Shown: piece after piece, positions 29,303 through 53,258 of the stretch
Layout: each line of letters starts with the position of its first letter
How positions within the stretch are numbered: the stretch's first letter is position 1
DNA from: Vulcanimicrobiota bacterium
GTDB taxonomy: Bacteria > Vulcanimicrobiota > Xenobia > Xenobiales > JADMJV01
Direction: 5' to 3'
DNA: 56,330 nt
Assembly (NCBI GenBank): GCA_017307785.1
Contig: JAFKGI010000012.1
Location: 128,001 to 184,330, forward strand
The notes under the pieces: model-generated
What the model was told of the DNA's origin: nothing
Database searches by the model: none
What the model saw: the letters and a program-made list of their open reading frames with translations, nothing else
Program-made: the position numbers and the translations under genes

Positions 29303-29662
29303 ATGGATAACGAACACAAGATTCCCCCCACCATTGACAATCAGTTGGAAGGAATGCGCAGCCGCCGCCCCGCCGACAGCCGCAGCGAAGACTACAACGA
29401 AGGCTCGGACGACAACGACCTCGGAATCGCCATCGATCCCATCAGCGCCGACGACGGCACCCCCGACCAGATCTCGGCCGTCGAGCAAATCCAGGCCACC
29501 TGGTCCCCCGGCGCCCCCGAAACCGCCTTCGGAGCCGTCCCTCCCGAAAACGACGACGAAGAAATCTCCGCCCAGAGCATCCGCGCCGACCGCGATCCCG
29601 AAGAGAACTTCGAAGACCCCGATCTCGACAACCTCGACGCCCACTCCAGCCTCGACCTCTAA
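29303..29662 (+). CDS. Hypothetical highly acidic protein
   Basis: 119 aa rich in Asp/Glu. GAGGAG 9 nt before the ATG. Confidence 0.45.
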   Translation: MDNEHKIPPTIDNQLEGMRSRRPADSRSEDYNEGSDDNDLGIAIDPISADDGTPDQISAVEQIQATWSPGAPETAFGAVPPENDDEEISAQSIRADRDPEENFEDPDLDNLDAHSSLDL

Positions 29663-29685
29663 AACCAGGCACCCCCGGGCGCACT

Positions 29686-30160
29686 GCCGCCACCGGTGGG
29701 CGCAATGCCGACACCGGTGAGCGCGCCGGCACCCGTAGACGCGCCGACACCGGTAGGCGCAATGCCGGCACCGGTGAGCGCGCCGATACCGGTAGGCGCA
29801 ATGCCGATACCGGTGGCGCGCCGACACCGGTGGGCGCAATGCCGACACCCGTGAGCGCGCCGACACCGGTGGGCGCAATTCCGGCACCGGTGAGCGCGCT
29901 GACACCCGTAGGCGCAATTCCGACACCCGTAGGCGCGCCGACACCCGTAGACGCGCCGATACCGATAGGCGCGCCAATACCGGTAGGCGCAATTCCGACA
30001 CCCGTAGACGCGCCGACACCGGTAGGCGCAATGCCGACACCGGTAGGCGCAATTCCGCCACCCGTAGGTGCGCCGGCACCCGTGAGCGCGCCGACACCGG
30101 TAGGCGCAATTCCGCCACCCGTAGGTGCGCCGACACCGGTAGGCGCAATTCCGCCCCCCC
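29686..30160 (+). repeat. Coding tandem repeat array (18- and 21-nt units encoding PTPVGA(I/M)-type peptides)
   Basis: More than 20 imperfect units, gcgccgacaccggtaggc / gcaat(g/t)ccgacacc(g/c)gt(g/a)agc. One unit at 29811-29820 has GG where the others have GGG. An 8-C run follows at 30153-30160. Confidence 0.85.
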
Positions 30161-30220
30161 AAGCAAGCCCCAAACCCCAAAGTAGGCCCATCCGCAAAAC
30201 CGCAGAATTCCCAGCAGGAG
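29704..30220 (+). pseudogene. PTPVGA-repeat protein segment disrupted by a frameshift
   Basis: Frame 2 reads MPTPVSAPAPVDAPTPVGAMP... from ATG 29704 and then hits TGA at 29852-29854 after the G-run shortening. The same peptide repeat continues in frame 1 from 29830 to about 30160. It is either disrupted or a homopolymer sequencing error. Confidence 0.4.
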
Positions 30221-31165
30221 ATGTTCCCCTTCTTCCAGCGCCAACCGCCCACGCCCAAAGTCATCTACCTGCGCGGCGAGCCTACCAAAACCGGCCAGGA
30301 CATCCAGGAGCAACCGCAACATCTAGGCGAAATCTTGCAATCCCTGGCCCCACCTGCCCTGCTCCTGCGCCTCCCGGAAACGATCCAGGCCGCAGCCCTC
30401 CAGGTCATCCCCTGGCTCTGGCAAGAACGCGGCTTTCACTTCCCGCCCATCACCCTCGAGCGCGCCACTCACCCCACCCTGACCGTCCTCGACCAGGGCG
30501 AAACTCCGCTCCACCTGGCCCATCCCCACTTCACCGCCACCGAGCAGGCCCAACTCCAGCTGCAGAGCGCCCTGCTCGACAACCTGCCGCGCTTCCTCAA
30601 CCGCGACTACGTGCTGACCCAGGCTCCCGACCTTGACCCCAGGCTGCTCAGTCGTCTGAGCAAGTATCTGCGCACTCTCCTCCAGGCCGGCTGGACTCTC
30701 CCCTCGCCTGACCAGTGGCACGCCCTGGCCAGCCAACCCTTCGACGAAATCGCCCGGGGCCTGGAACCAGTCCACGCCCGCATTCCCCTCCAACCCCAAG
30801 AGCGCACCGAGCTACTCTTCCAGGCCCTGATCGAAGAGCGCACCGGCCCGGCGATCTTTCAGGCCATCGAGGAATTCTGGGTAGCCAGCGGCCGCATCTT
30901 CCCGCTGCTCCAGACTACTTCCCAAAATCTCATCCGCGAACTCCTGAGGAACCCGGCCGAGGACCTGCACAACTGGGCCCGCCACACTCCCGATTTCGAA
31001 GAGCAGATCCTACAAAGCCAGCAACGACCCGCCACCACTTTGCCGCGCTTCACCCGTCTGGCCATCCTGGGCCAGGACCTCAGTTCCGAAGCGAAAATCC
31101 CCTTTGCGCAAGTGCTGGCCACCCCCGCCCAGGAAAGATGGGCCCGTCAACGCCTGGGCCCCTAA
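30221..31165 (+). CDS. Hypothetical protein (possibly the C-terminal domain of the repeat protein)
   Basis: 314 aa, non-repetitive, high GC3. The same frame stays open upstream to 30143, inside the repeat array, so a fusion via a +1 shift at the poly-C tract is possible. Confidence 0.5.
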   Translation: MFPFFQRQPPTPKVIYLRGEPTKTGQDIQEQPQHLGEILQSLAPPALLLRLPETIQAAALQVIPWLWQERGFHFPPITLERATHPTLTVLDQGETPLHLAHPHFTATEQAQLQLQSALLDNLPRFLNRDYVLTQAPDLDPRLLSRLSKYLRTLLQAGWTLPSPDQWHALASQPFDEIARGLEPVHARIPLQPQERTELLFQALIEERTGPAIFQAIEEFWVASGRIFPLLQTTSQNLIRELLRNPAEDLHNWARHTPDFEEQILQSQQRPATTLPRFTRLAILGQDLSSEAKIPFAQVLATPAQERWARQRLGP

Positions 31166-32351: not shown

Positions 32352-32645
32352 GTGGGGACCGTGTTGGCGATCTTCTTAACCCTGGTGGCCGTTTCCGCTC
32401 AGACTCTGGCCAATTACGCGCTACGAGACGAACGCTTCGTCCTGGGCGTGACCCTGCTGGCCTGTCATTTCGGGCTCTGGTGCCTGGCCCTGCGCCTGGC
32501 CCCCCTCACCGTGCTCATTCCCTGGACGGCCCTCAGTCACGTCCTCAATGCCTTGCTGGCCCGCGAACTGCTGCAAGAAAAAATCGGCCGGCGACGCTGG
32601 GCCGGCACCTTGCTCATCGCCTCGGGAATCGTGCTATGCAATTGA
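32352..32645 (+). CDS. EamA-like 4-TM small transporter subunit (ArnE-like)
   Basis: 97 aa, four hydrophobic helices. LQEKIGRRRWAGTLLIASGIVL parallels ArnE [23 protein letters not shown]. Confidence 0.55.
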   Translation: MGTVLAIFLTLVAVSAQTLANYALRDERFVLGVTLLACHFGLWCLALRLAPLTVLIPWTALSHVLNALLARELLQEKIGRRRWAGTLLIASGIVLCN

Positions 32646-32980
32646 GGACCGGACTGCTACTGGCCGCGCTGGCCATTTTTCTAAGCACCGAAGGCGACAT
32701 CCAGCTGGCTCTGGCCCTGCGCAAAATGGGCAGCTTCCACCTCTTCTACGCCCCCCTGTGGTTCGCCATCTTGCTGCTGGCCGCTCACTTCGCCGTCTGG
32801 CTGCAGGTGCTCAAGCGCCTGGAACTCTCGCTGGCCGTCCCCCTCACCGCCAGCTCCTACCTGCTCAACGCCCTGCTCGCCCCCGCCCAACTCTCCGAAA
32901 CCATGGGCGTCAAAAGCCTGGCCGGCTACGCCCTGGTCACCCTGGGGGTGGTGCTGGTCGTTTCCAGCGACGATCAATAA
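32636..32980 (+). CDS. EamA-like 4-TM small transporter subunit (ArnF-like)
   Basis: 114 aa paralogue that overlaps the upstream gene by 10 nt. Same topology. Confidence 0.55.
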   Translation: MQLRTGLLLAALAIFLSTEGDIQLALALRKMGSFHLFYAPLWFAILLLAAHFAVWLQVLKRLELSLAVPLTASSYLLNALLAPAQLSETMGVKSLAGYALVTLGVVLVVSSDDQ

Positions 32981-33309
32981 CTGCCGATCACCTCAATCAG
33001 CCCCACCAGGTGGTCGTTCATCTCGTCCAAATCCTCGGCCGGAATCCACCACTCGGTGTGCTGCTCTCCGCCCACGGTCTGCACCGCGTAGCGGTCCATG
33101 AATTCTCGCCGCACGAAAAACCGCGTCACATAACCCGCCCCATCGGCCGGCACATTCCATTTCACGGTAATCTCGCGCGCATACTCCTCATTGGTCACAG
33201 GATAGAAAAACGGCTGACCCAAAAGCCGCGGCGGCCAACGCCGAAAACCCGACTGCCGAACCAGCTCCAGCTCGGCCGGACCACAAGGACGAAAGCATTC
33301 CTGATGCAT
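32974..33309 (-). CDS. Hypothetical protein
   Basis: Start chosen at MHQECF to avoid overlap with the SNF2 start. The ORF extends to 33357. Confidence 0.35.
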   Translation of the reverse strand: MHQECFRPCGPAELELVRQSGFRRWPPRLLGQPFFYPVTNEEYAREITVKWNVPADGAGYVTRFFVRREFMDRYAVQTVGGEQHTEWWIPAEDLDEMNDHLVGLIEVIGSY

Positions 33310-33345
33310 AGAGGGCAGTATAGCACTCGCGTCGACATAAAGCCT

Positions 33346-35868
33346 ATGGCGGTCCAACTCACTCCCGGCGCAACCTTACGCCTGCCCGGCGACGGCGACT
33401 GGCGCGAGCTGCTGCTGGCCCTGGCCAGCGACCGCCCCTCCGAACCGGACCTGGCCTTCTGGCGCCTCTACGCCCGCCGCTACCTGACCAGCCTGTGCCA
33501 GCTCCCCCCAGGACAACAACCACCGATCCCCCCCGAAGCCGAACGCACACAGCTCAGCCAGAACGCTCCGCCCATGGAGGGCGGCGAATACCTCTCCCCC
33601 GACTCCCTGGCCCAAATCTGGACCCAGGTCGACCACTGGGTCCAACAGCAAATCGCCCAAGAAAGCCTCGACCACTTCCTCCAGGAGCACGCCCCGCGCT
33701 GGCGGCAAGTGGGCCGCGTCTACTTCCACCTGGCCGAAAACAAAGACAACGAAGAGCGGCCCTTCGCCTTCCTGGCCACCTACACCACCGGCCTCAGCCA
33801 GGGCGGCCGCCTGCAACACGTCCCCCTGAGAAAAAGCCTGGAGACCTACGCCGGCGAACGCAACCAGCAGGCCCTCATCAAGCTCCTCTCCCCCATCCAG
33901 AGGGCCGCCGAAAGCTGCCCCTGGGTCGACGAAATGCTGCAGTCCGGCCACATCTACCAGCCCCTGGCCTGGCCCATCGAAAAAGCCTACCAACTGCTTC
34001 GCAGCGCCCCCCAACTCGAAGAAGCCGGCCTCTCCATCCTGCTCCCCGACTGGTGGAAAAAACGCCCGCGTCCACGCGTAGCCGTCACCGTCGGCCCCAC
34101 TCCCGGCTCCGCCCTGGGCGCCGACGCCCTGCTGCAATTCCAGGTGCAAATCGCATACGACCAACAGAATCTCAGCCCCCAGGAAATCCAGGATCTGCTG
34201 GCCCAACAGAACCACCTGGTGCGCCTCAAAGGCCAGTGGGTGGAAGTCGACCGCGACAAACTGCAGCAGGCCCTCGATCACTGGAAATTGCTGGAAAGCG
34301 CCGGCCCCGTCTCCTTCCACGAAGGCATGCGCATGCTGGCAGGTGCCTCCCCCAACCTCAAGGACGACCCCAACGGCAGCCAGGAACGCGAATGGGTTCA
34401 CCTGCAGGCGGCCGATAGCCTGCGTCCCCTGCTTGAAGGTTCTCGCCCGCAGGATCTCCCCCCCGATCCCAACCTCAAAGCCGAACTGCGCCCCTACCAA
34501 AAGCAAGGCGTCGACTGGTTGCTTTTCCTCAGCCGCCTGGGCCTGGGCGCCTGCCTGGCCGACGACATGGGCCTGGGCAAAACCATCCAGGTGCTGGCCA
34601 CTCTGCTGGCCCAATCACAAGGCCCCTCGCTGCTGATCGTGCCCGCCTCGCTGCTGGGCAACTGGCGAGCCGAAGCCGCCCGCTTCGCCCCCAAACTCAA
34701 GCTCTACTTCGCCCACCCCTCCGAAACCAATCAATACGAACCGCAGCAAGCCGATCTGGTCCTCACCACCTACCCCCAGATCACCCGCCAACCATGGCTG
34801 CAGCAACAGAGCTGGCACCTGCTCATCCTGGACGAAGCCCAGGCCATCAAAAACGCCGGCACCCGTCAGAGTCAGACCGTCAAAAAGCTCCAGGCCACCT
34901 CTCGCATCGCCCTCACCGGCACGCCCGTGGAAAATCGCCTGGGCGATCTCTGGTCGCTCTTTGATTTTCTCAACCCCGGCCTCTTAGGTTCGGCCAAAGT
35001 CTTCTCGGACTGGGTCAAATCGCTCAACCACCAGTTCGCCCCGCTGCGCCAGCTGGTCGCCCCCTACATTCTCAGACGCCTGAAAACCGACCGCAAAGTC
35101 ATCTCCGACCTGCCCGACAAAACGGAAACACCCGCCTATTGCGGCCTCAGCAAGCCCCAGATCAAGCTCTACGAAAAGGTGCTGCAAACCCTGGCCAAAG
35201 CTCTGGAAAGCAAAACCGGCATCGCCCGCAAAGGCCTGGTGCTGCAATCGCTCATGCAGCTCAAGCAGATTTGCAATCACCCCAGCCAGTTCACCGGCGC
35301 CAGCGATTGGCTCCCCGCCGCCAGCGGCAAATTCCAGCGTCTCGGAGAACTGTGCCGCGAATTATCCGATCGTCAGCAACCGGTGCTTATCTTTACCCAG
35401 TTTCGCGAAATCATCGAGCCCCTGCACGATTACCTCACCAACATTTACCAGCGACCCGGCCTCGTGCTCCACGGCGGAACTGCCGTATCCAAACGACAAA
35501 AACTGGTGCAGCAATTCCAGGCCCCAGACGGCCCGCCTTTCTTCCTGCTCTCCCTCAAAGCCGGCGGCACCGGCCTCAACCTGACCCGCGCTTCCCACGT
35601 CATTCATTTCGACCGCTGGTGGAACCCGGCCGTGGAAAACCAGGCCACCGACCGGGCCTTCCGCATCGGCCAAAAAAACAACGTGCAGGTGCACAAGTTC
35701 ATCTGCCGCGGCACTTTGGAAGAAAAAATCGACGCCACCATCGCCGCCAAACAGAAACTCGCCCAAGAAATTCTGAGCGGCGATCAGGAAATCAACCTCA
35801 GCGAACTCTCCAACGACGAGCTGCTGCAACTCGTCTCTCTCGACGTTCGCCAGGCCAGTCTCGCGTGA
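33346..35868 (+). CDS. SNF2-family helicase (RapA/HepA-like) with N-terminal domain of unknown function
   Basis: LADDMGLGKTIQ (motif I), LILDEAQAIKN (DEAQ box), LTGTPVENRL, helicase-C FLLSLKAGGTGLNLT, QATDRAFRIGQ. Confidence 0.9.
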   Translation: MAVQLTPGATLRLPGDGDWRELLLALASDRPSEPDLAFWRLYARRYLTSLCQLPPGQQPPIPPEAERTQLSQNAPPMEGGEYLSPDSLAQIWTQVDHWVQQQIAQESLDHFLQEHAPRWRQVGRVYFHLAENKDNEERPFAFLATYTTGLSQGGRLQHVPLRKSLETYAGERNQQALIKLLSPIQRAAESCPWVDEMLQSGHIYQPLAWPIEKAYQLLRSAPQLEEAGLSILLPDWWKKRPRPRVAVTVGPTPGSALGADALLQFQVQIAYDQQNLSPQEIQDLLAQQNHLVRLKGQWVEVDRDKLQQALDHWKLLESAGPVSFHEGMRMLAGASPNLKDDPNGSQEREWVHLQAADSLRPLLEGSRPQDLPPDPNLKAELRPYQKQGVDWLLFLSRLGLGACLADDMGLGKTIQVLATLLAQSQGPSLLIVPASLLGNWRAEAARFAPKLKLYFAHPSETNQYEPQQADLVLTTYPQITRQPWLQQQSWHLLILDEAQAIKNAGTRQSQTVKKLQATSRIALTGTPVENRLGDLWSLFDFLNPGLLGSAKVFSDWVKSLNHQFAPLRQLVAPYILRRLKTDRKVISDLPDKTETPAYCGLSKPQIKLYEKVLQTLAKALESKTGIARKGLVLQSLMQLKQICNHPSQFTGASDWLPAASGKFQRLGELCRELSDRQQPVLIFTQFREIIEPLHDYLTNIYQRPGLVLHGGTAVSKRQKLVQQFQAPDGPPFFLLSLKAGGTGLNLTRASHVIHFDRWWNPAVENQATDRAFRIGQKNNVQVHKFICRGTLEEKIDATIAAKQKLAQEILSGDQEINLSELSNDELLQLVSLDVRQASLA

Positions 35869-36575
35869 GCTTCTGGGGCTACAGCTCGGCCTCCGAGCGC
35901 CGCTCCTATGCGCGCCAGATGGCGGCCAGCCTGGAAAAGTCCGGCCGCAAGCTGGAGCCTGTCACCATCCAGGGCCTCAAAATCGCCCGCAGCTTTTGGG
36001 GCAAAGCCTGGTGCGAGCACCTGGAATCCTTCTCCGACATCTTCAACCGCCTGGAGCGCGGCCGCACCTACGCCCGCAACGGATCCGTGCTCCATCTAGC
36101 GGTCACACCGGGACAAATCGAAGCCCTGGTCAGCGGCGGCAGCTTATACGACGTGCGCATCCGCATCGACGACCTCGCCCCCACACTCTGGCAGAGCATC
36201 CAGGAAAAATGCGCCGGCCAGGTCGCCACCATGCTCGAACTACTCCAAGGACAGTTCTCCAGCCAGGTCATGAAAGTCGTCACCGACCGCCATCAGGGCC
36301 TATTTCCCCAGCCCTCCCAAATCCACCTGAAATGCAGCTGCCCCGATGGCGCCCGTATGTGCAAGCACGTGGCAGCCGTCCTCTACGGCATGGGCAACCG
36401 CCTCGATGACCAACCCGAACTGCTCTTCCGCCTGCGCGGAGTCGACCCCGCCGAACTCTTCTCCACCCATCTTCACCTGCCCCAGGCCCGCGACGCGGAA
36501 GTCCTCCCCGACGATGGACTGGCCGACCTCTTCGGTATCGAACTGCTGCTCGACCCCGAAGGCCTCAGCCCTTAA
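35865..36575 (+). CDS. SWIM zinc-finger protein
   Basis: CSCPDGARMCKHVAAVLY = CxCxnCxH SWIM motif. GTGA overlap with the SNF2 stop. Confidence 0.75.
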   Translation: MSFWGYSSASERRSYARQMAASLEKSGRKLEPVTIQGLKIARSFWGKAWCEHLESFSDIFNRLERGRTYARNGSVLHLAVTPGQIEALVSGGSLYDVRIRIDDLAPTLWQSIQEKCAGQVATMLELLQGQFSSQVMKVVTDRHQGLFPQPSQIHLKCSCPDGARMCKHVAAVLYGMGNRLDDQPELLFRLRGVDPAELFSTHLHLPQARDAEVLPDDGLADLFGIELLLDPEGLSP

Positions 36576-37050
36576 AAGCCGCCTCAATGCGCGCGTGGTC
36601 GATCTTCTGCATCGTCATCATCGCGTCCATGGCCCGCTTGGCCGCCGCCCGGTCCGGGCTGCTCATACACTCCATCAGCACCCGAGGCGTAATCTGCCAG
36701 GAAAACCCCCAGCGGTCCTTACACCAACCGCAATCGCTCTCCCGACCGCCGTTGGAGACAATCGCCTCCCAGTAACGGTCCGTCTCGGCCTGATCCTCGG
36801 TAAATACCATAAAACTCACCGACTCATTGGCCTGAAACAGAGGCCCGCCGTTCAAGCCCACAAACGACTGCCCGCACACGGTAAACTCCACCGTCAGCTC
36901 CTCGCCGGCCGGAGTCGAGGGATTGTCGCTGGCCGCATCGCTGGCCCGGCCCACCTGACTATCGGGAAAGACCGAAGCATAAAACTCGGCCGCCTTGCGC
37001 GCCTCTCCGCGGTCAAACCACAGACAGGTCGTCATCTTATTCTTGCTCAT
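36565..37050 (-). CDS. VOC/PhnB-like (3-demethylubiquinone-9 3-methyltransferase domain) family protein
   Basis: MSKNKMTTCLWFDRGEARKAAEFYASVFPDS matches the family's typical M..I.PCLWFD..AEEA..FY start. The 5' extension in the ORF track is rejected. Confidence 0.65.
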   Translation of the reverse strand: MSKNKMTTCLWFDRGEARKAAEFYASVFPDSQVGRASDAASDNPSTPAGEELTVEFTVCGQSFVGLNGGPLFQANESVSFMVFTEDQAETDRYWEAIVSNGGRESDCGWCKDRWGFSWQITPRVLMECMSSPDRAAAKRAMDAMMTMQKIDHARIEAAFKG

Positions 37051-37420
37051 CAACGCTCTCCTTTGCCACATAGCCCAGCGCCTCTCGCTCGGCAAACCAG
37101 GATTCGAACTCTCCCCGGTCCACGCTCTCGTCCCCGGGCCCGTGGAAAATGCGGGCCGGCGCGTCGTCCCGCAACTCGCTGCCCGGCTCGACTTCCTCGT
37201 CATAGGACCGAATCGGATTGTGAAAGTGCATCCGCTCCCCCTCCACCCGATTCAGCGTCAGCGAATGAAAGTCGCTCTGCCCCGCGAACCAGTGCAGGCT
37301 CAATAGCACGTCCTCGTTGCCCGCCTGCACCTGCCCCCACAACACCTGCGCATCGGCCTCGGGCACCAGCTCCGATCCCGTCACCGCCTGGTGCATCTTC
37401 AACAACTGCTGATCTCTCAT
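37037..37420 (-). CDS. Hypothetical protein
   Basis: 127-aa ORF in an operon-like string. No motif. Confidence 0.35.
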   Translation of the reverse strand: MRDQQLLKMHQAVTGSELVPEADAQVLWGQVQAGNEDVLLSLHWFAGQSDFHSLTLNRVEGERMHFHNPIRSYDEEVEPGSELRDDAPARIFHGPGDESVDRGEFESWFAEREALGYVAKESVDEQE

Positions 37421-38748
37421 TTCGCCTCCGCGCGGGACACTTCCTGAAGCGCTCGCTCCATGGTCTCCAAAATATGACTCAAAGAAGCCAGAGACGGCGT
37501 ATTGATCCAGGCCTCCAGACTGTCTACCCCGGCCTTTAGCTGCTCCAACTGCAAACCCAACCGCTCATCGCCGGGCACGGCCGCCAGCAGGCTGCGCCAG
37601 CGCTCCACCTCGGCTTCCATGCTGGCCCGATCCGACTTGCCGTCCGCATACTCCTGGGCCACCGCCTGCAGATAAGCCAGATTCGGGTTGACCCCCCCGC
37701 CCACTGCCGCCTCCGACAAATCGTGCTGCGCCTTCTCGTCCACCCGCTCCAACATACGAAACCCGCAGGCCGGACAAAACTTCTGACCGCCTTCGACGGT
37801 AGCGGCACACTTGGGACAGGCCAGCTGCCCCTGCACGTCCAGCAAGGCCAGCACTTCTTGACGCCTTTGACTCAGGTCTTCGTCGATCTCGCGAATGCCA
37901 TCCAGCGAAGCCTCCGGATCCTCCAGCAGGTTCTGCAACGCTTCCGTCAGCTCGGCAAAAAGAGCCTGCAACTCCTTGCCCTTCTCCTCCAAGAGCGCGC
38001 TATCCACCGTAGTCAAAAGCGCCGATACCCCTTGACTCAAAGAATGCAACTCGGCCAGTTTGCGCCACACGAAAGCGTGCAGCTCGGTGTCGTCCTGCGA
38101 CTGCAGCAACAAGTCCAGATGCTCCAACCAGTTGGCCGGCAGCGCCGGCCCCAGCAACTCCGCGTAGCCGTGAGCCAACCGCTGCACCTGATCCAGCTGG
38201 GCCTCGCTCTCGGATCCCGCCGCCAAACGCAGCAGCCCCTCCAAGGACTCCAGCAAAGCCTGAGCGCAACGACCCAACTCCACTTCCATCCCGGGCGTGT
38301 CGATGGCGTACTGCAAACGCCGGCGCTCGGTCTCGATGCAGTGCCAGTAAAACTCCTGGTCCCCACCGCCCATCCAGGACTCGTAGGCCCAGAACATCTG
38401 ATTGATACCGGCCAACGGAGTCGGCCCGTGGAGACGCCACACCTCTTCCTGGAACTGCTGCAGGTTCTGGGTGTGCTGACGATGCAGGCGTAAAAAGAGA
38501 CCGGCCAGCTGGGGGTCGATGGCCTGCTGCAGCTCGCTGGCCCCCTGCAAGCAGTCCTGGTATCCCTGACTCACCCGCTCTTCCAGCTCGTTCAGGTTCT
38601 CGCGCAGCTCCTCGGGCATGGCCAACAAATTGGAATGCCAGCTGGCGAAGTGCTCTTCCAGACCCTGGGAAAAGGCGGCGAAATCGGGCAAGTCGGCCTC
38701 GTTGCCGCTGGCAACGTAGGCCTCAAGACGGTCCTGGAAGGAGTTCAA
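37417..38748 (-). CDS. Hypothetical helical protein with zinc ribbon
   Basis: 443 aa, mostly predicted helical. CPKC...x12...CPAC zinc ribbon. ATGA overlap with the downstream gene. Confidence 0.45.
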   Translation of the reverse strand: MNSFQDRLEAYVASGNEADLPDFAAFSQGLEEHFASWHSNLLAMPEELRENLNELEERVSQGYQDCLQGASELQQAIDPQLAGLFLRLHRQHTQNLQQFQEEVWRLHGPTPLAGINQMFWAYESWMGGGDQEFYWHCIETERRRLQYAIDTPGMEVELGRCAQALLESLEGLLRLAAGSESEAQLDQVQRLAHGYAELLGPALPANWLEHLDLLLQSQDDTELHAFVWRKLAELHSLSQGVSALLTTVDSALLEEKGKELQALFAELTEALQNLLEDPEASLDGIREIDEDLSQRRQEVLALLDVQGQLACPKCAATVEGGQKFCPACGFRMLERVDEKAQHDLSEAAVGGGVNPNLAYLQAVAQEYADGKSDRASMEAEVERWRSLLAAVPGDERLGLQLEQLKAGVDSLEAWINTPSLASLSHILETMERALQEVSRAEAK

Positions 38749-39080
38749 CGCAGGCTTTGGTGCTTCACCGATTCTACGAACTGATCCAGACTCTGCAGAT
38801 TCTTGATGGTCTGGCGGGCCTGGCCCTCGGCCTGATTCCAGTAAACGCTGTTACCGGACTTCAACTGCTTGAAGGCTTCCTCGGTGGTGGCGGACTTGTA
38901 GCCGCCCAGTAACCCCCCCTTGGCCTGATACAGGCGACCGGCGTGGTCGAGAAACTCCAGGCTCTGCTGAGCCTTCACATCCTGAGAGCTGGGCATGGTC
39001 TGGGCACTGGCGGCGGAAGCGACTCCCCCGGCCAGACTGCAGGCCAGCAGCGTCCCCGCCACCACTCCTCTCCAGGGCAT
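38745..39080 (-). CDS. Small secreted protein
   Basis: MPWRGVVAGTLLACSLAGGVASAASAQT signal peptide, 111 aa. The rest of the 652-aa ORF in the track is a shadow of the plus-strand calpain-like gene. Confidence 0.4.
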   Translation of the reverse strand: MPWRGVVAGTLLACSLAGGVASAASAQTMPSSQDVKAQQSLEFLDHAGRLYQAKGGLLGGYKSATTEEAFKQLKSGNSVYWNQAEGQARQTIKNLQSLDQFVESVKHQSLR

Positions 39081-39362
39081 CGCAAAGCCCGACTTCTTGA
39101 CTTCCGCGGCCTCTTCGGCAAAACGCATCGGCCCATATCCGGGGCCCGTCGACTCCGAGGAAGCGCGAAAGCCGTCCTGGGGAGCCGTTTCCTGGTTTCT
39201 TTCCGGGCGCTTGACGCCACTCGGAGCGGCCCCGATCAGGGAGGAATACTGCGTGGAAATCATGCAGATAGTTTCTGCTGAAGAAAAAAGACTCCTGCCC
39301 ACTAGACGGGCTAGACTTGTGGTGGGATACAGGTAGTTGGTGATTCTTCGCCTGGAGGTTTG

Positions 39363-40931
39363 ATGTACGCTCAGTACAACTTGGGGAACCCTTCGTTCTG
39401 CGCTCCCACGCCGTTCAGCCCTGGCTTTAATCAGGGCTACGGCAACTTTGGAATGACCCAGCAGATGCTCGGCAGCCCCTACGGCATGCCGCAAGGCTGG
39501 GGTGGCATGCAAAATCAGATGCAGCAAATGATGATGATGATGCAGACCATGATGATGTTCCAGCAGATGCAAATGCAGATGCAGGGCGGCGGAATGGGCC
39601 CGGGCAACTTCTACCCGCCCATGCCCCAGCCGTATGGCCCCATCCCTCCCAACCACGGTTTCCCCCCCTTCCCTCCCCAGCCGTACAACAACCAGCCTTA
39701 CAATAACCAGCCCTACAACAATCAGCCTTACAACAACAATCCTTACGGCAACGGCCCGCAGCCCTTCCCAGGGCCGCGCCCCCAGCCGTTTCCGGCGCCC
39801 GCTCCCCCTCCCTGGAACGGACCCAAGCCCACTCCCCAGCCAGCTCCCGCCCCCAAGCCGGTCCCCAAACCCGCGCCCAAGCCGCTCAATGCTCAGCAAT
39901 GGCGCACCAGCCTCAATGGCAACCCCGGCGCCCTCAAAGCCTACAACGCCATGACCCCGGAACAGCGCGCCACCGTGGATCGCCTGGGCATGAACCATCC
40001 CGCCGAAGCCGGCGGTGCCGATGCCAACTTCCTGAAGATCATGGGCAACGGTCGCCTCACCAATCGCGACCGCCAGGGCCAGACCACGCTGCAGCACCTG
40101 GATCAGCTGGATCGCCAGAAAGTCCCCAAAGAAGTCGACAAACCCACCGCCTATCGCGAACTGGTGGCCAACATCGCCGAACCCGGCAACACCAATCAAC
40201 GCGGTCGCGGCACCTGCGCCCCCACCTCGGTGGAGTACGTGCACGTCAAGAATCAGCCTTCCGACTACGCCCGCGTGGTCACCGGACTGCTCTCGGAAAA
40301 AGGCGAAGTCCGCATGAACAACGGCGAGACCATGAAGCGCAACGCCAGCGGCCTCGGCCCCGATAACAGCGGACGCACCTCGGTGGACCGCATCTATCAG
40401 TCCAGCATGATGGACTACGCCGACGGCGACAAAATGACGTACAACAACCAGACCGACCAGCACGTCGGCGCCGACGGCAAAAACTCGCACCAGGGCATGT
40501 ACCTGAACGAAGAAGCCAAGGCTCTCAACGCCGTCACCGGCGAACGCCAGACTTCGCGCGGCGTCGACCCCAACAACACCGGCTTCATGGGCATTCGCCG
40601 CTTCACCACCGATCGCGACCTGCGCCATGAACTCAGCGAAGGCCGCAATCCCATCGTCTGCATGACCTGGGACCAGAGCCCGGGAGCGCGCGACAAAGAC
40701 CACGCTCTCACCATCACCAAGATGGATGGCGACTATGTCTACCTGCGCAACCCCTGGGGCAACGACGAAAAGGGCGGAACGAACGGACCCCCGCGTGAAG
40801 TCGTCGATCCCAATACCGGACTGGTGCGCATGAAGAAAGACGACTTCTACGCCCGCCTCACCGGCATCAACCAGCGCGAAGACGACCGCAGCTTCGCCGG
40901 CCGCTGGTGGGACCGCATCACCGGCAGCTAG
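39363..40931 (+). CDS. Calpain-like cysteine peptidase with Q/N/M-rich prion-like N-terminal domain
   Basis: GGAGG 5 nt before the ATG. N-terminal QNQMQQMMMMMQTMMMFQQMQMQMQ and four QPYNN repeats plus a Pro-rich stretch. C-domain has RGRGTCAPTS (Cys), DHALTI (His) and YLRNPWGNDE (Asn box, cf. calpain RLRNPWG). Confidence 0.65.
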   Translation: MYAQYNLGNPSFCAPTPFSPGFNQGYGNFGMTQQMLGSPYGMPQGWGGMQNQMQQMMMMMQTMMMFQQMQMQMQGGGMGPGNFYPPMPQPYGPIPPNHGFPPFPPQPYNNQPYNNQPYNNQPYNNNPYGNGPQPFPGPRPQPFPAPAPPPWNGPKPTPQPAPAPKPVPKPAPKPLNAQQWRTSLNGNPGALKAYNAMTPEQRATVDRLGMNHPAEAGGADANFLKIMGNGRLTNRDRQGQTTLQHLDQLDRQKVPKEVDKPTAYRELVANIAEPGNTNQRGRGTCAPTSVEYVHVKNQPSDYARVVTGLLSEKGEVRMNNGETMKRNASGLGPDNSGRTSVDRIYQSSMMDYADGDKMTYNNQTDQHVGADGKNSHQGMYLNEEAKALNAVTGERQTSRGVDPNNTGFMGIRRFTTDRDLRHELSEGRNPIVCMTWDQSPGARDKDHALTITKMDGDYVYLRNPWGNDEKGGTNGPPREVVDPNTGLVRMKKDDFYARLTGINQREDDRSFAGRWWDRITGS

Positions 40932-40940
40932 ACCACCGCC

Positions 40941-41372
40941 TCAAGCCTGCCGGTCGCGATCGCTTTCCGCGGCGTGGCGCCAGCCCCCGCCTGCACCGGC
41001 GCGACGCTGCAAGCGAAACTCCTTGACGATACCGGCAATCTTGTCCGGGTCCGAAAAGTTGCTGCGATGCAGACTGAACTCACACTGGCCGCACTGATAA
41101 AACTCCGACCAGCCTGTCGATCCGCCCTTAGGCAGGAAGGTGGGACAATGGCAGTTCGGGCACCGCGTCTGCCCTTGCGCAGTCTCGACCACCTTGCGCT
41201 CGATGACGGGCCGGCGCAGCGCGTTGAACATGGCCTCGAGCCTCTCCAGTCCGCCGGCAGTGACGTGCCAGGTGCCCAGGCGTTTCTCGGCCGGCACCAG
41301 CCCCTCCGCCAAAAGCGCCCTGATCAATTCGGGTCGCACTTTATAAAGTGCGGCCAGCTCTTTCAAGGTCAT
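40941..41372 (-). CDS. Hypothetical HTH-like + zinc-ribbon protein
   Basis: N-terminal MTLKELAALYKVRPELIRALLAEG looks like an excisionase or MerR-type HTH. CPNCHC...CGQCEFSLH zinc ribbon. Confidence 0.4.
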   Translation of the reverse strand: MTLKELAALYKVRPELIRALLAEGLVPAEKRLGTWHVTAGGLERLEAMFNALRRPVIERKVVETAQGQTRCPNCHCPTFLPKGGSTGWSEFYQCGQCEFSLHRSNFSDPDKIAGIVKEFRLQRRAGAGGGWRHAAESDRDRQA

Positions 41373-41421: not shown

Positions 41422-42708
41422 TCAAGGAACGACCACGCCCACCTGATCCAGACCAGAAATGCCAAACCACAGGTTGCCGTCCGGCCCCGGATTGATGCCA
41501 TAAGGCCGCGACAAAGCGGTCAGTGCTGCAGAGGTAAACTCGCTCACCACACCGGTCTGCGTGATCCGCCCCAGCCGGCCTCCCTGGTACTCGGTAAACC
41601 AGAGGTTCCCGTCCGCTCCGGCACAGATGCCGACCGGCCTCGCCGCCGCGCTGATCCCCGAGGAGAACTCCGTAATCACACCGGCCGGGGTGATCCGCCC
41701 GATGCGATTCCCGCCGAACTCGGTGAACCACAGGTTGCCGTCCGGTCCCGCGCAAATCCCTTCGGGCGCGGACCCGGCCGTAATTCCAGTCGAGAACTCT
41801 GTCACCACCCCCGCGGTGGTGATACGTCCAATGCGATTCCCGCCGAAGTCGGTGAACCACAAATTACCATCCGGACCGCTGCAAATCTGGCTGGGGAGAG
41901 CTCCTCCGCTAATTCCCGCGGAAAACTCGGTGATGACGCCGGCAGGCGTGATGCGCCCGATGCGGCCGCTATTCTGCTCGGCGAACCAGAGATTTCCATC
42001 CGGTCCCGCACAAATTCCGTAAGGACCGCTTGCAGCCGTAAGTCCCGCCGAGAACTCGGTGACTACCCCGGCCGTCGTGATCCGTCCGATGCGGTTTCCG
42101 GCAATCTCGGTGAACCACAGATTCCCATCCGGTCCGGCGCAGATGACATAGGCCTGAGCGCCGCTGGTCAGGCCGGGAAATTCGGTGACAGCGCCACTAC
42201 TGGGATTCAACCGGCCAACCCGATCTCCGCCGTTCTCGATGAACCAGAGGTTGCCGTCGGGTCCCGCGCAAACGCCGGTTGGAGCAGCCCCTGCGGAAAT
42301 ACCGGTGCTCACGGCCTGAATGGTTCCGACGGGCGGAACCACCCGCAGGTTAGAGTTCGCACTCAGCCCACCGAAAGCCGCCGTAATTGTGGCCGACACC
42401 GCCGGAATCACCTGGGTCAGAGACTGGCCCGTGGCCAGGCCGCTGTTGGAAACCACACTGGCGGCCCCCGGATTGGAAGAAGTCCAGGTCGCCAGATTGG
42501 CCACGTTCGCACTCTGACCATCGCTGCTGGTAGCGGTCGCCACAAACTGCAGGGTCTCGCCCGAATGAATGCGGGCAGAAACGGGACTGACCGCCAAACC
42601 CGTCAGGGTCGGCAACGGGACGAAGCCCCGATCTCCACTCGTGCTACTGCCGCAGCCCAGTGCGAACAGCGCCAGACTTAAAATTGTCGTACGCAATGCA
42701 GAACTCAT
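41422..42708 (-). CDS. Vgb (streptogramin B lyase)-like 7-bladed beta-propeller lipoprotein with Big_2-like N-domain
   Basis: Lipobox LALFALGCGSS. The Big_2-like segment is LTGLAVSPVSARIHSGETLQFVATATSSDGQS. Seven repeats of ICAGPDGNLWFTE....IGRIT..G...EF. Confidence 0.75.
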   Translation of the reverse strand: MSSALRTTILSLALFALGCGSSTSGDRGFVPLPTLTGLAVSPVSARIHSGETLQFVATATSSDGQSANVANLATWTSSNPGAASVVSNSGLATGQSLTQVIPAVSATITAAFGGLSANSNLRVVPPVGTIQAVSTGISAGAAPTGVCAGPDGNLWFIENGGDRVGRLNPSSGAVTEFPGLTSGAQAYVICAGPDGNLWFTEIAGNRIGRITTAGVVTEFSAGLTAASGPYGICAGPDGNLWFAEQNSGRIGRITPAGVITEFSAGISGGALPSQICSGPDGNLWFTDFGGNRIGRITTAGVVTEFSTGITAGSAPEGICAGPDGNLWFTEFGGNRIGRITPAGVITEFSSGISAAARPVGICAGADGNLWFTEYQGGRLGRITQTGVVSEFTSAALTALSRPYGINPGPDGNLWFGISGLDQVGVVVP

Positions 42709-42874
42709 AACCCGGAAGATATCGCGAGACCAGCAACCACTCCTGCTTCCGGAAACAAATCGCCAGCATCATGCCCGCCTATCCCGACGGCAGCGCCCTC
42801 CTATACCAATCCACAAGGAAAACCGCCCGTCTCTCTCGACTCATGGAGAAACCATCGCAAACGAAGGAGTTCCC

Positions 42875-44146
42875 ATGAAATCAACCCTACGATCCGGCCT
42901 GCTGACCCTGGCCTTGCTGACCCTCGGATGCGGTGGCAGCACCTCGGACAACCTGGGTGTGCAAACCCCGACCCTCGCCTCCCTGACCGTAACCCCCGCG
43001 TCGGCCCGCCTCCTTTCCGGACAGACCCTGCAATTCACGGCCACCGCCACCGCCAGCGACGGACGCAGCGGCGACGTCACCTCCCTATCCACCTGGGCCT
43101 CCTCCAACAACTCGGCCGTCACCATCGTCGGCAACACCGGCCTGGCCACCGCCCAATCCATCACCCAGGTCGTGCCCGCCCTCACCGCCACCATCACGGC
43201 CGCCTTCCAGAACCTCAACGCCAGCACCAGCCTCAGACTGATCCCGGCCACGGGCACCATCCAGCGTCTCACCACCGGCCTCACCGCCGCCGCCGGCCCC
43301 ACCTGCATCTGCACGGGCCCCGACGGCAATCTCTGGTTCACCGAAAACGGCACCAGCAGCATCGGCCGAATCAACCCGACCACCGGAGAGATCACGGAAT
43401 TTTCCGGCCTGAGCGGAGTCCGCCGGCCCAACTTCATCTGCGCCGGACCGGACGGCAACCTCTGGTTCACCATCGGCAGCATCGACCGCATTGGCCGCAT
43501 CACCCCCGCCGGCGTGATCACCGAATTCTCCACCGGCATCTCCGCCAAGTCCTACCCCTACGGCATCTGTGCCGGTCCCGACGGCAACCTCTGGTTCACC
43601 GAAATCGACACCAACCTCATCGGCCGCATTACCCCGGCCGGAGTGGTCACCGAATTTCCCGTCCCCACGGCCGGCGTCGAACCGTTCCAGATTTGCAGCG
43701 GCCCGGACGGCAACCTGTGGTTCACCGAGCATGTCGGAAATCGCATCGCCAAAATCACCACCGCCGGCGTGGTCACGGAATTCTCCGGCCTCACCGCCAA
43801 CAGTGGCCCCGACGGAATCTGCGCCGGCCCCGACGGCAACCTCTGGTTCACCGAAAGAGACCGCGACGCCATCGGCCAGATCACCACCGCCGGCGTCATC
43901 AGCGAATTTAGCGCCGGCATCACCGCCGGCGCCTTGCCCCACACCATCACCCCCGGACCCGACGGTAATTTCTGGTTTGTCGAACTGGCCGGCCGCATCG
44001 GACGCATCACCCCCGGCAGCGATGTCACCGAATTCACCGGCCCCCTCACCAACAACTCGATTCCCTTCGCCATCACCCCCGGACCCGACGGCAATCTCTG
44101 GTTCACCGAACTGGTCGGAAATTCGGTCGACGTCCTCGTCCCCTAA
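42875..44146 (+). CDS. Vgb-like beta-propeller lipoprotein (paralogue, divergently transcribed)
   Basis: AAGGAG 5 nt before the ATG. LALLTLGCGGS lipobox, Big_2-like segment, and the same GPDGNLWFTE/IGRIT repeat seven times. Confidence 0.75.
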   Translation: MKSTLRSGLLTLALLTLGCGGSTSDNLGVQTPTLASLTVTPASARLLSGQTLQFTATATASDGRSGDVTSLSTWASSNNSAVTIVGNTGLATAQSITQVVPALTATITAAFQNLNASTSLRLIPATGTIQRLTTGLTAAAGPTCICTGPDGNLWFTENGTSSIGRINPTTGEITEFSGLSGVRRPNFICAGPDGNLWFTIGSIDRIGRITPAGVITEFSTGISAKSYPYGICAGPDGNLWFTEIDTNLIGRITPAGVVTEFPVPTAGVEPFQICSGPDGNLWFTEHVGNRIAKITTAGVVTEFSGLTANSGPDGICAGPDGNLWFTERDRDAIGQITTAGVISEFSAGITAGALPHTITPGPDGNFWFVELAGRIGRITPGSDVTEFTGPLTNNSIPFAITPGPDGNLWFTELVGNSVDVLVP

Positions 44147-49582: not shown

Positions 49583-52500
49583 ATGGCGGGTGGAGCAAAT
49601 TTCGGATTCCTGGAACAACACGATCCCCAGCTCATGCACCTGGCCCAGCGCGCCGAACGCTACCTGGCCGACGACCCCAACACCTGCCTCATCAAATTGC
49701 GCCAATTCGGCGAATTGCTCATCAAGCACGTAGCCGCCCAGCACCGCCTTCAGGAAGCCGAGAACTTCGCCGCCACCATCCATCTGCTCCAACGCGAAGG
49801 CGTCCACGCCAGCGTCATTCAGGGCTTCCACGACCTGCGCCGGGCCGGCAATGACGCCGTCCACGGCTTCCGCGGCGACCACCAAGAAGCACTGCTCAAA
49901 CTCAAAACCGCCCGCGCCATGGGCACCTGGTATCACCGCGTCACCAAAGACCGCAGCTTCGAACCCGGCCCCTTCGTCCCGCCCCCCAGCGACGACGAAC
50001 AACTCCAGCAACTCCAGGACCAGCTCCAACAAGCCCTGCTGGAAAAACAACGCGCCCAGAACGTCGCCGAAACCGAAGCCCAGGCCCGCGCCCAGGCCGA
50101 ACTCAAAGCCTTGCAGGCGGCCGAAGAAGCCGCCAGCTGGAAAAGCCTGGCCGAAGAAACCACCTCACCAACCCCTGTGGCCACCGTCCCCCTCGAGGAG
50201 CTCAAAACCGCCACCGCCCAACAACCCCTCGACGAAGACGAAGCCGACACGCGCATCAAAATCGACGCCCAACTGCGCGCCGCCGGCTGGCAGGTGGACA
50301 GCGTCGAGCTCCGCTACGCCAAAGGCGCCCGCCCCCAGCAAGGCAAAAGCCTGGCCATCGCCGAGTATCCCACCCCCAAAGGACCAGCCGACTACGTCCT
50401 CTTCCTGGGCCTCACCCCGGTCGCCATCGTCGAGGCCAAGCGCAAAACCAAAGACGTCTCGGCCAGCCTGGAACAAGCTCGCCGCTATGCCAAAGCCCTG
50501 CCCGACCCCATCCCCTTCCTCTTTGCCACCAACGGCCGCCCCTACCTCAGACAGCTGATCGAGAAAAGCGGCGTCTGGTTCCGCGACGAACGCCGTCCCC
50601 AAAACCGCGCCCACGCCCTCAAAGACTGGTACACCCCCAAAGGCCTGGAAGCTCTACTCGCCCAGGACCTCGACCAGGCCCACCAAAAGCTCGAAAAAGA
50701 GCCTTTCGCCTACCTGCAACTACGCGACTACCAGATCCAGGCCATCCAATCGGTGGAAGCCGCCATCGCCGAAGGCAAACAGGACATCCTGCTGGCCATG
50801 GCCACCGGCACCGGCAAAACCCGCACCGCCATCGGCCTCATCTACCGCCTGCTCAAAAGCAAACGCTTCCGCCGCATCCTCTTCCTGGTCGACCGAACCG
50901 CCCTGGGCAACCAGAGCTTCAACGCCTTCGAGCACTTCCGCCTGGAACAAAACCAGACATTCACCGAGACCTACGACGTCAAGTCCCTGGGCGACGTCAC
51001 CCCCGACGAAACCACCAAAGTCCACATCGCCACCATCCAGGCCACCATCCAACGAGCCCTGGAAAGCGACGAGGCCAACGCCCCCGTCGACCAGTACGAC
51101 TGCATCCTGGTCGACGAATGCCATCGTGGCTACAGCCTGGATCGCGAACTCACCGACAACGAGCTCACCTACAAAAACGAGCAAGACTACATCTCCCAAT
51201 ACCGCCGCGCCCTCGACCACTTCGACGCTGTGCGCATCGGCCTCACCGCCACTCCCGCCCTGCACACCACCGAAATCTTCGGCCCGCCCATCTTCCTCTA
51301 CAGCTACCGCCAGGCCGTCATCGACGGCTACCTGGTCGACCACGAACCCCCCCTGCAAATCGTCACCAAACTTGCTCAAGATGGCATGGTCTGGCCCGCC
51401 CAGTCAGAGATGCTCCTCTACAACACCCAAACCCAAATGCCAGAAACCACCTGGCTACCCGACGAAGTCAAAATCGACCTGGAAAAGTTCAACAAGACCG
51501 TCCTCACCGAGAACTTCAATCAGGCCGTCTGCCAGGAACTGGCCCGCCACATTGACCCCACCCTGCCCGGCAAAACCCTGGTCTTCTGCGCCACCGACCT
51601 GCACGCCGACATGGTCGTACGCCTGCTCAAAGAAGCCTTCGAAGACGCTCCCGAACAGGCGGTCGTCAAAATCACCGGCGCCTCCGACAAACCCAACGAA
51701 CTCATCCGCCGCTTCAAAAACGAACAATACCCCAGCGTGGCCGTCACCGTCGACCTGCTCACCACCGGCGTCGACGTCCCGCAGATCTGCCACATCGTCT
51801 TCCTGCGCCGCGTCAAAAGCCGCATTCTCTACCAACAAATGATCGGCCGCGCCACCCGCCTGTGCAAAGACTTCCTCAAAGAAAGCTTCCACATCTACGA
51901 CGCCGTCGAACTCTACAAAGACATGGACGAGTTCTCCGACATGAAGCCGGTGGTGGTCAACCCCAAAACCACCGTCGAGCAGCTGGTGCGCGAACTCACC
52001 ACCGCCCCCGAAGAGGCCCGCCACGAAGTCTTAGACCAGCTGCTCGCCAAACTCCAGCGCAAAAAACGCAGCCTCCAGGGCAACACCTTCCAAGAACTCG
52101 CCGGCCAGACCTTAGCCGACCTCATCGAGCAACTGCGCGGCCAGACCCCCGAACAAGTCGCCACCTACTTCGGCGAACGCTTCGCCCTGGTCAGCTACCT
52201 CGACACCCACAAACCCAACCCCGCCCTCTATGTCGTCTCCACCCACGAAGACGAAGTCGCCTACACCGCCCAAGGCTTCGGCCCCGGCAACCAGCCCCCG
52301 GCCGACTACTTAGAAGGCTTCGCCCACTTCATCCAACAAAACCTCAACGAAGTCGCCGCCCTCACCCTGGTCACCCAACGCCCCAGAGACCTCACCCGCG
52401 AAGACCTCCGCCAATTACGCCTCCTCCTGGATAACGCCGGCTTCTCCGAAACCCAACTCAAAGCCGCCTACCGCAGAACCACCAACCAGGACATCGCCGC

Positions 52501-52801: not shown

Positions 52802-52886
52802 GGAGGCTCGACTCGTCAAAAGAGATTGTCTACACAATGTGTAGACAATCTTAGCGGGTAAGCCCCTACAACTTCGACTGGTCCAA

Positions 52887-53258
52887 TTAAGCCGAGGCCC
52901 CGCGATTCTTTCTGGGGAGACCGGTGAACTTCTTCAGCAACGAAGGTTCTTCCAAAAACTCCAGAATTCGCGCAGCCGAGCGCGACGGATTTCGAAGCCC
53001 CTGCTCCCAACTACTGACCGCGTCCGTCGACACCCCCACCACTCGAGCAAGAAACGCCTGACTGTAACCCAGCTGCTCGCGCAGCTGCCGAACGCCCGCT
53101 GCACCATAAACCTTTGGAGGATCAGGCACTTCGACTTCTCGCGTTTTCAGGCTGATCTTGCCCTGCTCGAAAGCCAGAACCTCCTCGAGCCCCTGCAGAA
53201 TCTCGCTAGCAACGCTAGAGCGTTTTTTCATCGTGACCACTCCTTCTTTTGACTTCAA
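52887..53258 (-). CDS. HigA-like antitoxin (XRE-family HTH)
   Basis: LREQLGYSQAFLARVVGVSTDAVSSWEQGLRNPS helix-turn-helix. Lies downstream of and overlapping the toxin gene. Region GC is lower than the surroundings. Confidence 0.7.
   Translation of the reverse strand: MKSKEGVVTMKKRSSVASEILQGLEEVLAFEQGKISLKTREVEVPDPPKVYGAAGVRQLREQLGYSQAFLARVVGVSTDAVSSWEQGLRNPSRSAARILEFLEEPSLLKKFTGLPRKNRGASA

Follow-up and report, generated by a model that had tools for sequence, protein, structure and literature searches.

We analysed a 56,330 nt stretch of DNA from a Vulcanimicrobiota bacterium (GenBank assembly GCA_017307785.1, contig JAFKGI010000012.1, positions 128,001 to 184,330 of the forward strand; hereafter the window), in which a single gene on the + strand joins a charge-free N-terminal tail rich in Met and Gln to an enzyme domain with a calpain-like fold. 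A first-pass annotation had described this gene as a calpain-like cysteine protease fused to a prion-like low-complexity domain, and the presence of the fused gene at 39363-40931 is confirmed, as are all of the sequence strings quoted for it, i.e. the Met/Gln run QNQMQQMMMMMQTMMMFQQMQMQMQ, the QPYNN repeats, the PxP stretch and the motifs RGTCAPTS, DHALTI and YLRNPWG. The open reading frame (ORF), 39360/39363-40931, is a real coding sequence (CDS) of 522 amino acids plus a stop, and its product is 100% identical to a protein from a metagenome-assembled genome (MAG) annotated as 'hypothetical protein J0I12_13010 [Candidatus Eremiobacteraeota]'. The ATG at 39363 is preceded at a distance of 5 nt by the motif GGAGG, no in-frame ATG, GTG or TTG lies upstream of it except a TTG at 39360, and all orthologues begin, like the protein studied here, with MYAQYNLGNP. 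These features, together with non-synonymous divergence (dN) far below synonymous divergence (dS), rule out a mis-assigned start or a non-coding tail, since the tail is both translated and under selection (dN 0.11-0.15 against dS >1 for residues 1-105). The low-complexity region thus lies inside the CDS, which disposes of the concern, raised in the same annotation, that a misplaced start might have added it.

The composition of the tail is extreme. Residues 1-138 contain no Asp, Glu, Lys or Arg, whilst 26.7% of the residues of the C-terminal domain are charged, and given the latter value the naive probability of such a charge-free run is ~2e-19. Residues 31-78 are 35% Met and 27% Gln, the Met/Gln run itself occupies residues 50-74, and 13 Met fall within the 28 residues 47-74, many of them in MxM and MxxM spacings. 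The first 110 residues hold 19 Met, and over the same length 13-21 Met were counted in all 11 tail-bearing relatives.

The gene was set against four orthologues (from loci L001, L007, L009 and L010). Conservation is highest in residues 1-105 (79-82% amino acid identity, dN 0.11-0.15), ahead of the catalytic domain, residues 175-522 (69-75%, dN 0.19-0.23, dS 0.8-1.1), whilst the repeats plus linker, residues 106-174, are at 46-60% identity (dN 0.40-0.68, dS >1.5). The drift typical of low-complexity sequence is limited to the repeats and the PxP spacer; the repeat unit itself varies, being QPYNN here and PQPGFGG or GPQPQPGW in orthologues. In the distant relatives P0011 and P0012, with catalytic domains 46-53% identical to that of the protein studied here, the tail sequence has diverged and its composition has been kept: charge is almost absent, and 13-19 Met occur among the first 110 residues. 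Conservation of residues 1-105 beyond that of the enzyme domain argues for a specific interaction, and against an aggregation domain that depends on composition alone, and the tail probably has a specific job for the same reason.

In the full-length AlphaFold2 (AF2) model, the predicted local distance difference test (pLDDT) score is <50 for residues 1-49 and 74-144, and a helix is placed at residues 49-73 (pLDDT ~68), so that disorder is predicted on either side of the helix. An amphipathic or coiled-coil character of this Met/Gln helix was considered and rejected, the values not being above those of shuffled controls. Among 1946 ORFs of the window and loci L001-L008, no segment comparable to the Met/Gln core was found outside the orthologues. 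DNA-pattern scans of metagenomes returned no match for QTMMxFQQMQM and a single match for MYAQYNLGNP, which was the identical gene in an identical context; these near-empty scans therefore give no evidence that the tail moves between genes as a module joined to other enzymes. Residues 1-111 also served as the query of a word-index search, which was uninformative, as it missed even the query itself, probably through low-complexity masking.

Three further observations concern sequences of this kind. The tail of P0011 (L002 6001-7728) carries an acidic His/Asp-rich insert (DHDHDHHHDHGHDH; EEDDHDHDHHHDHGHDHGG) and several Cys, features suggestive of a metal-binding tail in this lineage. Directly downstream of the tail-less paralogue P0014, an 883-aa protein (L005 7424-10075, + strand) with no Pfam match includes an internal stretch without charged residues in which Met, Gly, Pro and Gln abound (…MMMGMVGLNDPLMGLMGMGMMLPSMMGMNNYYNMMPQQPW…), and Met-rich low complexity may thus recur beside this protease family. 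In the window, the ORF at 29445-30260 (- strand) has 131 consecutive residues free of charge, made up of GIAPTGVGAPTGG-like repeats; it may be spurious, lying antisense to a coding region that is itself repetitive.

The C-terminal domain is very probably an enzyme of clan CA with a calpain fold. The AF2 model of residues 175-522 was of high quality (pLDDT 88.7, predicted template modelling score 0.90), and a Foldseek comparison with PDB gave the cores of calpain-3, -9 and -1 as top matches, calpain cores being the best structural match with the longest alignment, at 12-16% identity. The predicted core has the papain-like alpha + beta two-lobe fold, with the Cys at the N-terminus of a helix and the His and Asn on the beta-lobe, and the corresponding motifs are RGTC(285)APTS, DH(447)ALTI and YLRN(463)PWG, with Gln279 placed 6 residues before Cys285. 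Cys285, His447, Arg338 and Pro464 do not vary among 77 diverse family members, in which Gln279 and Asn463 reach at least 90% conservation; Arg338 lies in an invariant motif, SGRxSxDRIYQSSMM, that is specific to the family. The catalytic Cys/His/Asn set proposed in the first-pass annotation is thereby upheld, and its reservation that the domain might fail to align to a papain or calpain fold is answered by calpain cores being the nearest solved structures. In a search of PDB sequences with the family profile, calpain-9 came first with an E-value of only 0.032, the gHA and rNPwG of the family pairing with GHA and RNPWG.

At the level of sequence families the assignment is different. The protein has no Pfam match at E<=1, including none to EF-hand or calpain_III, NCBIfam and PADLOC returned nothing meaningful for it, and none of the 77 relatives matches Peptidase_C2 at E<=0.1. 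Weak matches among the relatives are to Peptidase_C39_2 (9/77, best E 3e-6), DUF3335 (three relatives), Gln_amidase (papain-fold toxin 1), C70 and C39-like families. A PDB sequence search with the protein alone gave only Pro-rich noise, and one with a 22-sequence profile only a spurious match to a single ankyrin-like motif. Two features define the calpain family, a Peptidase_C2 domain and a Cys/His/Asn triad accompanied by an oxyanion Gln (PMC4631099). The present protein has the triad and the fold but no match to the hidden Markov model (HMM), and we therefore describe the domain as belonging to a distinct, unnamed family of clan CA and not as a calpain. The label 'calpain-like' accordingly holds for the fold and the catalytic set and fails for membership of Peptidase_C2 by sequence.

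The family is large. With residues 175-522 as query, a word-index search retrieved 22 relatives that all lack a Pfam domain, and 1554 clusters (at 50% identity) came up at E<=1e-3 when a profile was searched exhaustively, 288 of them at E<=1e-30. All relatives with a source name are 'hypothetical protein', including members of ten clusters sampled from the exhaustive search. Paralogues in nine loci (L013, L015, L016, L018-L020 and L023-L025) contain one to four tandem pseudo-copies of the N-terminal half, i.e. of the helical plus Cys-lobe half, all without the Cys, followed by one complete catalytic unit (Q..GTC / H / RNPWG); loss of the Cys from the extra copies with retention of one full set is the pattern expected of a working enzyme. 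Peptidase activity of the protein studied here is what these sequence features would predict.

Other members of the family are built differently. Three proteins of 1200-1800 aa (P0042, P0051 and P0098) fuse the protease domain to multiple annexin repeats, P0042 having an additional C-terminal DnaJ domain, and annexin-repeat fusions at L014 2737-7536 and L017 2668-7479 were recognised as such only by inspecting the translated ORF. The source of L014 is a MAG labelled Burkholderiales, that of L017 an unclassified bacterial MAG (MAG_50), and a small lobe protein of the 127-aa type described below lies near both.

The window also contains a gene at 21776-23188 (+ strand) that the first-pass annotation had taken for a second calpain-like gene and, with the present one, for a small paralogous family. 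The former is correct, since its product is a true Peptidase_C2 protein (Pfam, E 5.6e-9, 35.9 bits against a cut-off of 23.8), whereas the latter does not stand: the similarity between the two proteins is only marginal (BLASTP E 0.5; family HMM E 0.52; hhalign with the family, E 1.4e-3 and probability 17.6%) and is confined to the active-site motifs, so close paralogy is ruled out. True paralogues of the gene studied here lie elsewhere in Eremiobacterota/Vulcanimicrobiota genomes, with several per genome. The 21776-23188 product has a hydrophobic segment at its N-terminus, and its residues 172-195 resemble an EF-hand at a score below threshold (EF-hand_6, E 0.0064); no bacterial calpain has an EF-hand domain according to Rawlings 2015 (PMC4631099).

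Table 1. Features of the tailed protease gene and of the adjoining divergent operon; positions are those of the window.
Feature	Position	Strand	Basis
Conserved leader with Shine-Dalgarno GGAGG (39353-39357)	39310-39362	+	~50 nt before the ATG near-invariant in 5 orthologous loci
Residues 1-105, charge-free conserved module rich in G/F/Y/N/P/M/Q	39363-39677	+	Identity, dN/dS, AF2
Residues 47-74, Met/Gln-rich core (46% Met, 36% Gln)	39501-39584	+	Composition; predicted alpha-helix over 49-73
QPYNN pentapeptide tandem repeat	39677-39746	+	Tandem Repeats Finder: period 15 nt, 4.7 copies, 83% matches
Residues 132-174, PxP/KP-rich linker, 51% Pro, with the first charged residues	39756-39884	+	Composition
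Residues 175-275, six-helix N-terminal subdomain of the conserved domain	39885-40187	+	AF2, pLDDT mostly >90
Residues 276-522, papain/calpain-like catalytic core	40188-40928	+	AF2, Foldseek, conservation
Putative catalytic residues Gln279, Cys285, His447, Asn463	40197-40199, 40215-40217, 40701-40703, 40749-40751	+	Motif, conservation
Family-specific invariant Arg338	40374-40376	+	Alignment
172-aa protein with one hydrophobic segment, first gene of the operon	38745-39263	-	Only in close orthologous loci
443-aa all-helical acidic protein with zinc ribbon (CPKC...CPAC)	37417-38748	-	Pfam Zn_Ribbon_1, E 3.6e-5, below cut-off
127-aa free-standing His/Asn-lobe homologue (J0I12_12995)	37037-37420	-	hhalign

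Upstream of the protease gene, a divergent operon of three genes with successive overlaps of 4 nt encodes a 172-aa, a 443-aa and a 127-aa protein (Table 1). A copy of the 443-aa protein was detected by its HMM in 7/7 distinct tail-bearing loci and in 0/14 loci holding tail-less paralogues. Its gene is divergent from that of the protease in the window and in L001, L007, L009 and L010, and is co-directional and just upstream of it in L002 and L006, such that the linkage is kept despite a rearranged gene order and only ~23% identity of the 443-aa protein between distant loci. Adjacency restricted to tail-bearing loci suggests that this zinc-ribbon protein is a functional partner of the tail.

The 127-aa protein resembles one lobe of the enzyme. 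An hhalign comparison of its family with that of the protease gave a probability of 76.7% and an E-value of 2.1e-5 over 78 columns, pairing HSL with HAL, F-x-NP with LRNP and GP-R with GPPRE, so that the His and the F/L-x-N-P are aligned, and the HMM of the 127-aa family matches the protease ORFs of L004 and L012 at E 5e-5. In tail-bearing loci a stand-alone copy adjoins the protease gene, and in L013-L017 and L024 such copies are found no more than a few kb from distant paralogues; 39 clusters of the family were found, all of them stand-alone, hypothetical proteins of 113-130 aa. Neither the 127-aa nor the 443-aa protein gave a match in PDB sequence searches. PADLOC found nothing for the enzyme or the 127-aa protein and gave for the 443-aa protein only a very weak ZorA-like coiled-coil match (E 2.9e-4), on which grounds a defence-system reading was rejected.

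The leader of the protease gene follows the pattern GGTGGGATACAGGTAG.TGGTGA....GCCTGGAGGTTTG, which is near-invariant in the five orthologous loci despite saturation of the CDS at synonymous positions. Searches of 39310-39362 matched neither an Rfam family nor a sigma-70 promoter, so no known RNA family or promoter of that type was retained as its identity.

The remaining surroundings are varied. A gene for a TolC-family outer-membrane protein (OEP) follows the 127-aa gene in L001 (4338-5627), L007 (2361-3662), L009 and L010; the window lacks it and has an unrelated small gene (~36568-37000, - strand) at that place. Around the protease cluster (32548-36575, 41422-44146 and 49583-55303) lie genes for an SNF2 helicase and a SWIM zinc-finger protein, a type I restriction-modification system (HsdR, HsdM) and two proteins on opposite strands combining Big_2 with a virginiamycin-B-lyase-like beta-propeller, and the gene at 40941-41372 (- strand) encodes a MerR/HTH-like zinc-ribbon protein.

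The reading we prefer, tentatively and at close to an even chance, is that of a regulated clan-CA peptidase with a docking or self-association tail. The enzyme would have a two-lobed calpain/papain fold and would use Gln279 (oxyanion hole), Cys285, His447 and Asn463. One Eremiobacterota lineage would have acquired a charge-free N-terminal extension of ~175 residues in three parts, namely a sequence-conserved module (1-105) with a Met/Gln-rich helix at its centre, pentapeptide repeats of aromatic/Pro/Gln/Asn residues that evolve fast, and a stiff PxP spacer. That the module serves as a specific docking or self-association element, acting in a sticker-and-spacer manner, is plausible at somewhat lower confidence; the tail would then recruit or concentrate the protease, possibly in a manner dependent on methionine oxidation. 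The likeliest partner of the tail would be the co-occurring 443-aa zinc-ribbon helical protein, whilst the 127-aa lobe copy would most likely regulate the catalytic core, for example by competing with or replacing the enzyme's own lobe. The protein is probably cytoplasmic, because on inspection no basic residue occurs in its first 138 positions.

A stronger version of this proposal, in which the tail and the lobe form a two-part bacterial regulatory module for a calpain-fold protease, one serving to switch or localise the enzyme and the other as a control in trans, strikes us as very unlikely. In such a module a Met-rich, oxidation-sensitive, self-assembling tail (condensate- or prion-like) would dock onto a zinc-ribbon scaffold, and the free His/Asn lobe would control the active site in trans via lobe exchange or competition. 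If true, this would give prokaryotes an equivalent of the lobe alignment by which calpains are regulated.

Several points weigh against a regulated peptidase with a docking or self-association tail. The predicted Met/Gln helix is non-amphipathic and of only moderate confidence, and, since all tail-bearing proteins fall in a single clade, phylogeny confounds the co-occurrence of tail and zinc-ribbon protein. A connection with the envelope is hinted at by the TolC-like gene that lies behind the partner operon in four orthologous loci. The peptidase role rests on fold and conserved residues in a family annotated throughout as 'hypothetical', and papain-like folds also house deamidases, transglutaminases, acyltransferases and isopeptidases.

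The last of these points opens the way to a different enzyme on the same scaffold: the domain could be another clan-CA enzyme (a glutamine deamidase, a transglutaminase-like cross-linker or an acyltransferase) or a toxin with a neighbouring immunity protein. The weak Gln_amidase and C70 matches among relatives and a small conserved gene immediately downstream of the enzyme gene in L002 fit such a role, and the Gln-rich tail and Lys-rich linker could, as speculation, be transglutaminase substrates. We nevertheless regard it as improbable, given that the Gln/Cys/His/Asn set and RNPWG are features of calpain/papain peptidases (PMC4631099) and that calpain cores lead the structural matches; moreover, the 127-aa protein is a homologue of half the enzyme and is variable in position and orientation, neither being typical of toxin-immunity pairs, and PADLOC is silent on both proteins. 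The envelope hint is taken further by a reading of the tail as an export or targeting signal and envelope-spanning spacer, with non-classical delivery to the envelope or outside by way of the neighbouring membrane protein and, in relatives, the TolC-like protein. The divergent operon does open with a protein bearing a hydrophobic segment, OEP genes follow it in 4/5 close orthologous loci, envelope-spanning linkers such as that of TonB resemble the PxP/KP-rich spacer, and some distant family members, e.g. P0014, have N- or C-terminal hydrophobic segments. Yet the N-terminus (MYAQYNLGNPSF...) is by inspection not Sec- or Tat-like, with no basic n-region and no Lys or Arg in residues 1-138, neither the window nor the more distant tail-bearing loci L002 and L006 have the OEP gene, and no ABC transporter, membrane-fusion or other secretion-system gene lies within the cluster, which leaves export doubtful. 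The placement of the protein also bears on a proposal that the Met-rich segment binds Cu(I)/Ag(I) or scavenges oxidants, the protease answering copper, oxidative or chlorine stress. Its density of Met in MxM/MxxM spacings recalls the Met-rich domains that recruit Cu(I) in CueO-type detoxification proteins (PMC11494321) and the Met-rich peptide MrpX that scavenges hypochlorite (PMC4436054), and the His/Asp-rich insert and Cys of P0011 point the same way. These known elements are, however, periplasmic, whilst the N-terminus here does not look like a signal peptide; His and Asp are missing from the tail of most orthologues, and no copper-homeostasis or methionine sulfoxide reductase (Msr) gene occurs in the neighbourhood, so that this proposal appears quite improbable.

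Taking the prion-like domain of the first-pass annotation literally gives a model of a true prion-like domain, by which the protease would be switched into a self-templating, SDS-resistant amyloid. A parallel with Sup35 would lie in the succession of a Q/N-rich nucleating region, oligopeptide repeats, a linker and a functional domain, and the region is charge-free, rich in Q/N/G/Y and followed by short tandem repeats. A PAPA-like score reached 0.21 near residue 56 (cut-off 0.05; Sup35N control 0.10), a value from our own re-implementation that serves as a lead only. The Michelitsch-Weissman criterion asks for at least 30 Q+N in 80 consecutive residues, and the best window here has 27 (42 when Met is counted as well). 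Residues 1-174 are 26% Pro, the repeat and linker parts are strongly negative in the PAPA-like score, and at the Met/Gln core, predicted by AF2 to be helical, the FoldIndex-like value is >0, contrary to the disorder that PAPA requires. Sequence conservation above that of the enzyme domain is likewise atypical for prion domains, which are selected on composition. What survives of the term 'prion-like' is therefore the low charge, the Q/N/G/Y content and the repeats, whilst the Q/N threshold, the richness in Met and Pro, the helix and the conservation speak against it, and a self-templating amyloid is decidedly unlikely. Bacterial prion-forming domains are known, for example in Clostridium botulinum Rho (PMC6400439, PMC4703818), and 0.15-0.38% of bacterial proteins have prion-like regions, which amounts to 4-11 per proteome (PMC6400439), a class that is thus rare but known; to call such a composition very unusual for a bacterial enzyme was fair as to rarity and overstated in degree.

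The gene and its family are of interest on several counts. The large protease family (~1500 clusters at 50% identity), with its calpain-like fold, has no Pfam or NCBIfam model and all of its members are 'hypothetical', and in one lineage the enzyme is joined to a Met/Gln-rich region that is extreme in being charge-free and is under strong purifying selection. Should the tail control assembly or a redox response, it would provide a bacterial example of enzyme regulation by a low-complexity domain. The protease gene and the three-gene divergent operon make up a compact unit of four genes for study, the conserved free-standing 'half-protease' beside family members suggests an undescribed mode of protease control, and the annexin-fused relatives widen the set of bacterial proteins combining modules usually thought eukaryotic.

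Among known systems, the calpain core (C2, PF00648) shares with this family the two-lobed papain-like core and the order Gln, Cys, His, Asn, and the RNPWG motif around Asn463 is identical to that of calpain. Bacterial calpains, like the protein studied here, are without EF-hand or C2-like accessory domains (Rawlings 2015, PMC4631099); such domains, and Ca2+-binding sites in the core, are typical of classical calpains. The family differs from calpains in lacking, in this protein and its 77 relatives, a match to the Peptidase_C2 HMM, in its low structural-alignment identity, and in having a six-helix N-terminal subdomain and the SGRxSxDRIYQSSMM motif. C39-like and other clan-CA enzymes (Peptidase_C39_2, DUF3335, streptopain C10, staphopain) are of the same clan, whereas their alignments are shorter (120-157 residues) and our protein has neither a C39 match nor an attached ABC exporter. 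With the N-domain of Sup35 and with C. botulinum Rho the tail shares the absence of charge, the Q/N/G/Y content and the arrangement of repeats, then linker, then functional domain; it differs in lying below the Q/N threshold, in being Pro- and Met-rich and conserved in sequence, and in having a core predicted to be helical. The closest compositional precedents of the tail are the Met-rich domains of Pbp1/ataxin-2, TDP-43 and Pab1, which are likewise near-uncharged, rich in Met, Gln, Pro, Gly and aromatic residues, and built, as predicted for the tail, of a short helical Met-rich core with disordered flanks adjoining a folded domain, and which drive a self-association that is reversed by Met oxidation (PMC8394241). 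Those domains belong to eukaryotic RNA-binding proteins, whereas the tail belongs to a putative bacterial protease, and the Met density of the tail, 46% over 28 residues, is much above theirs.

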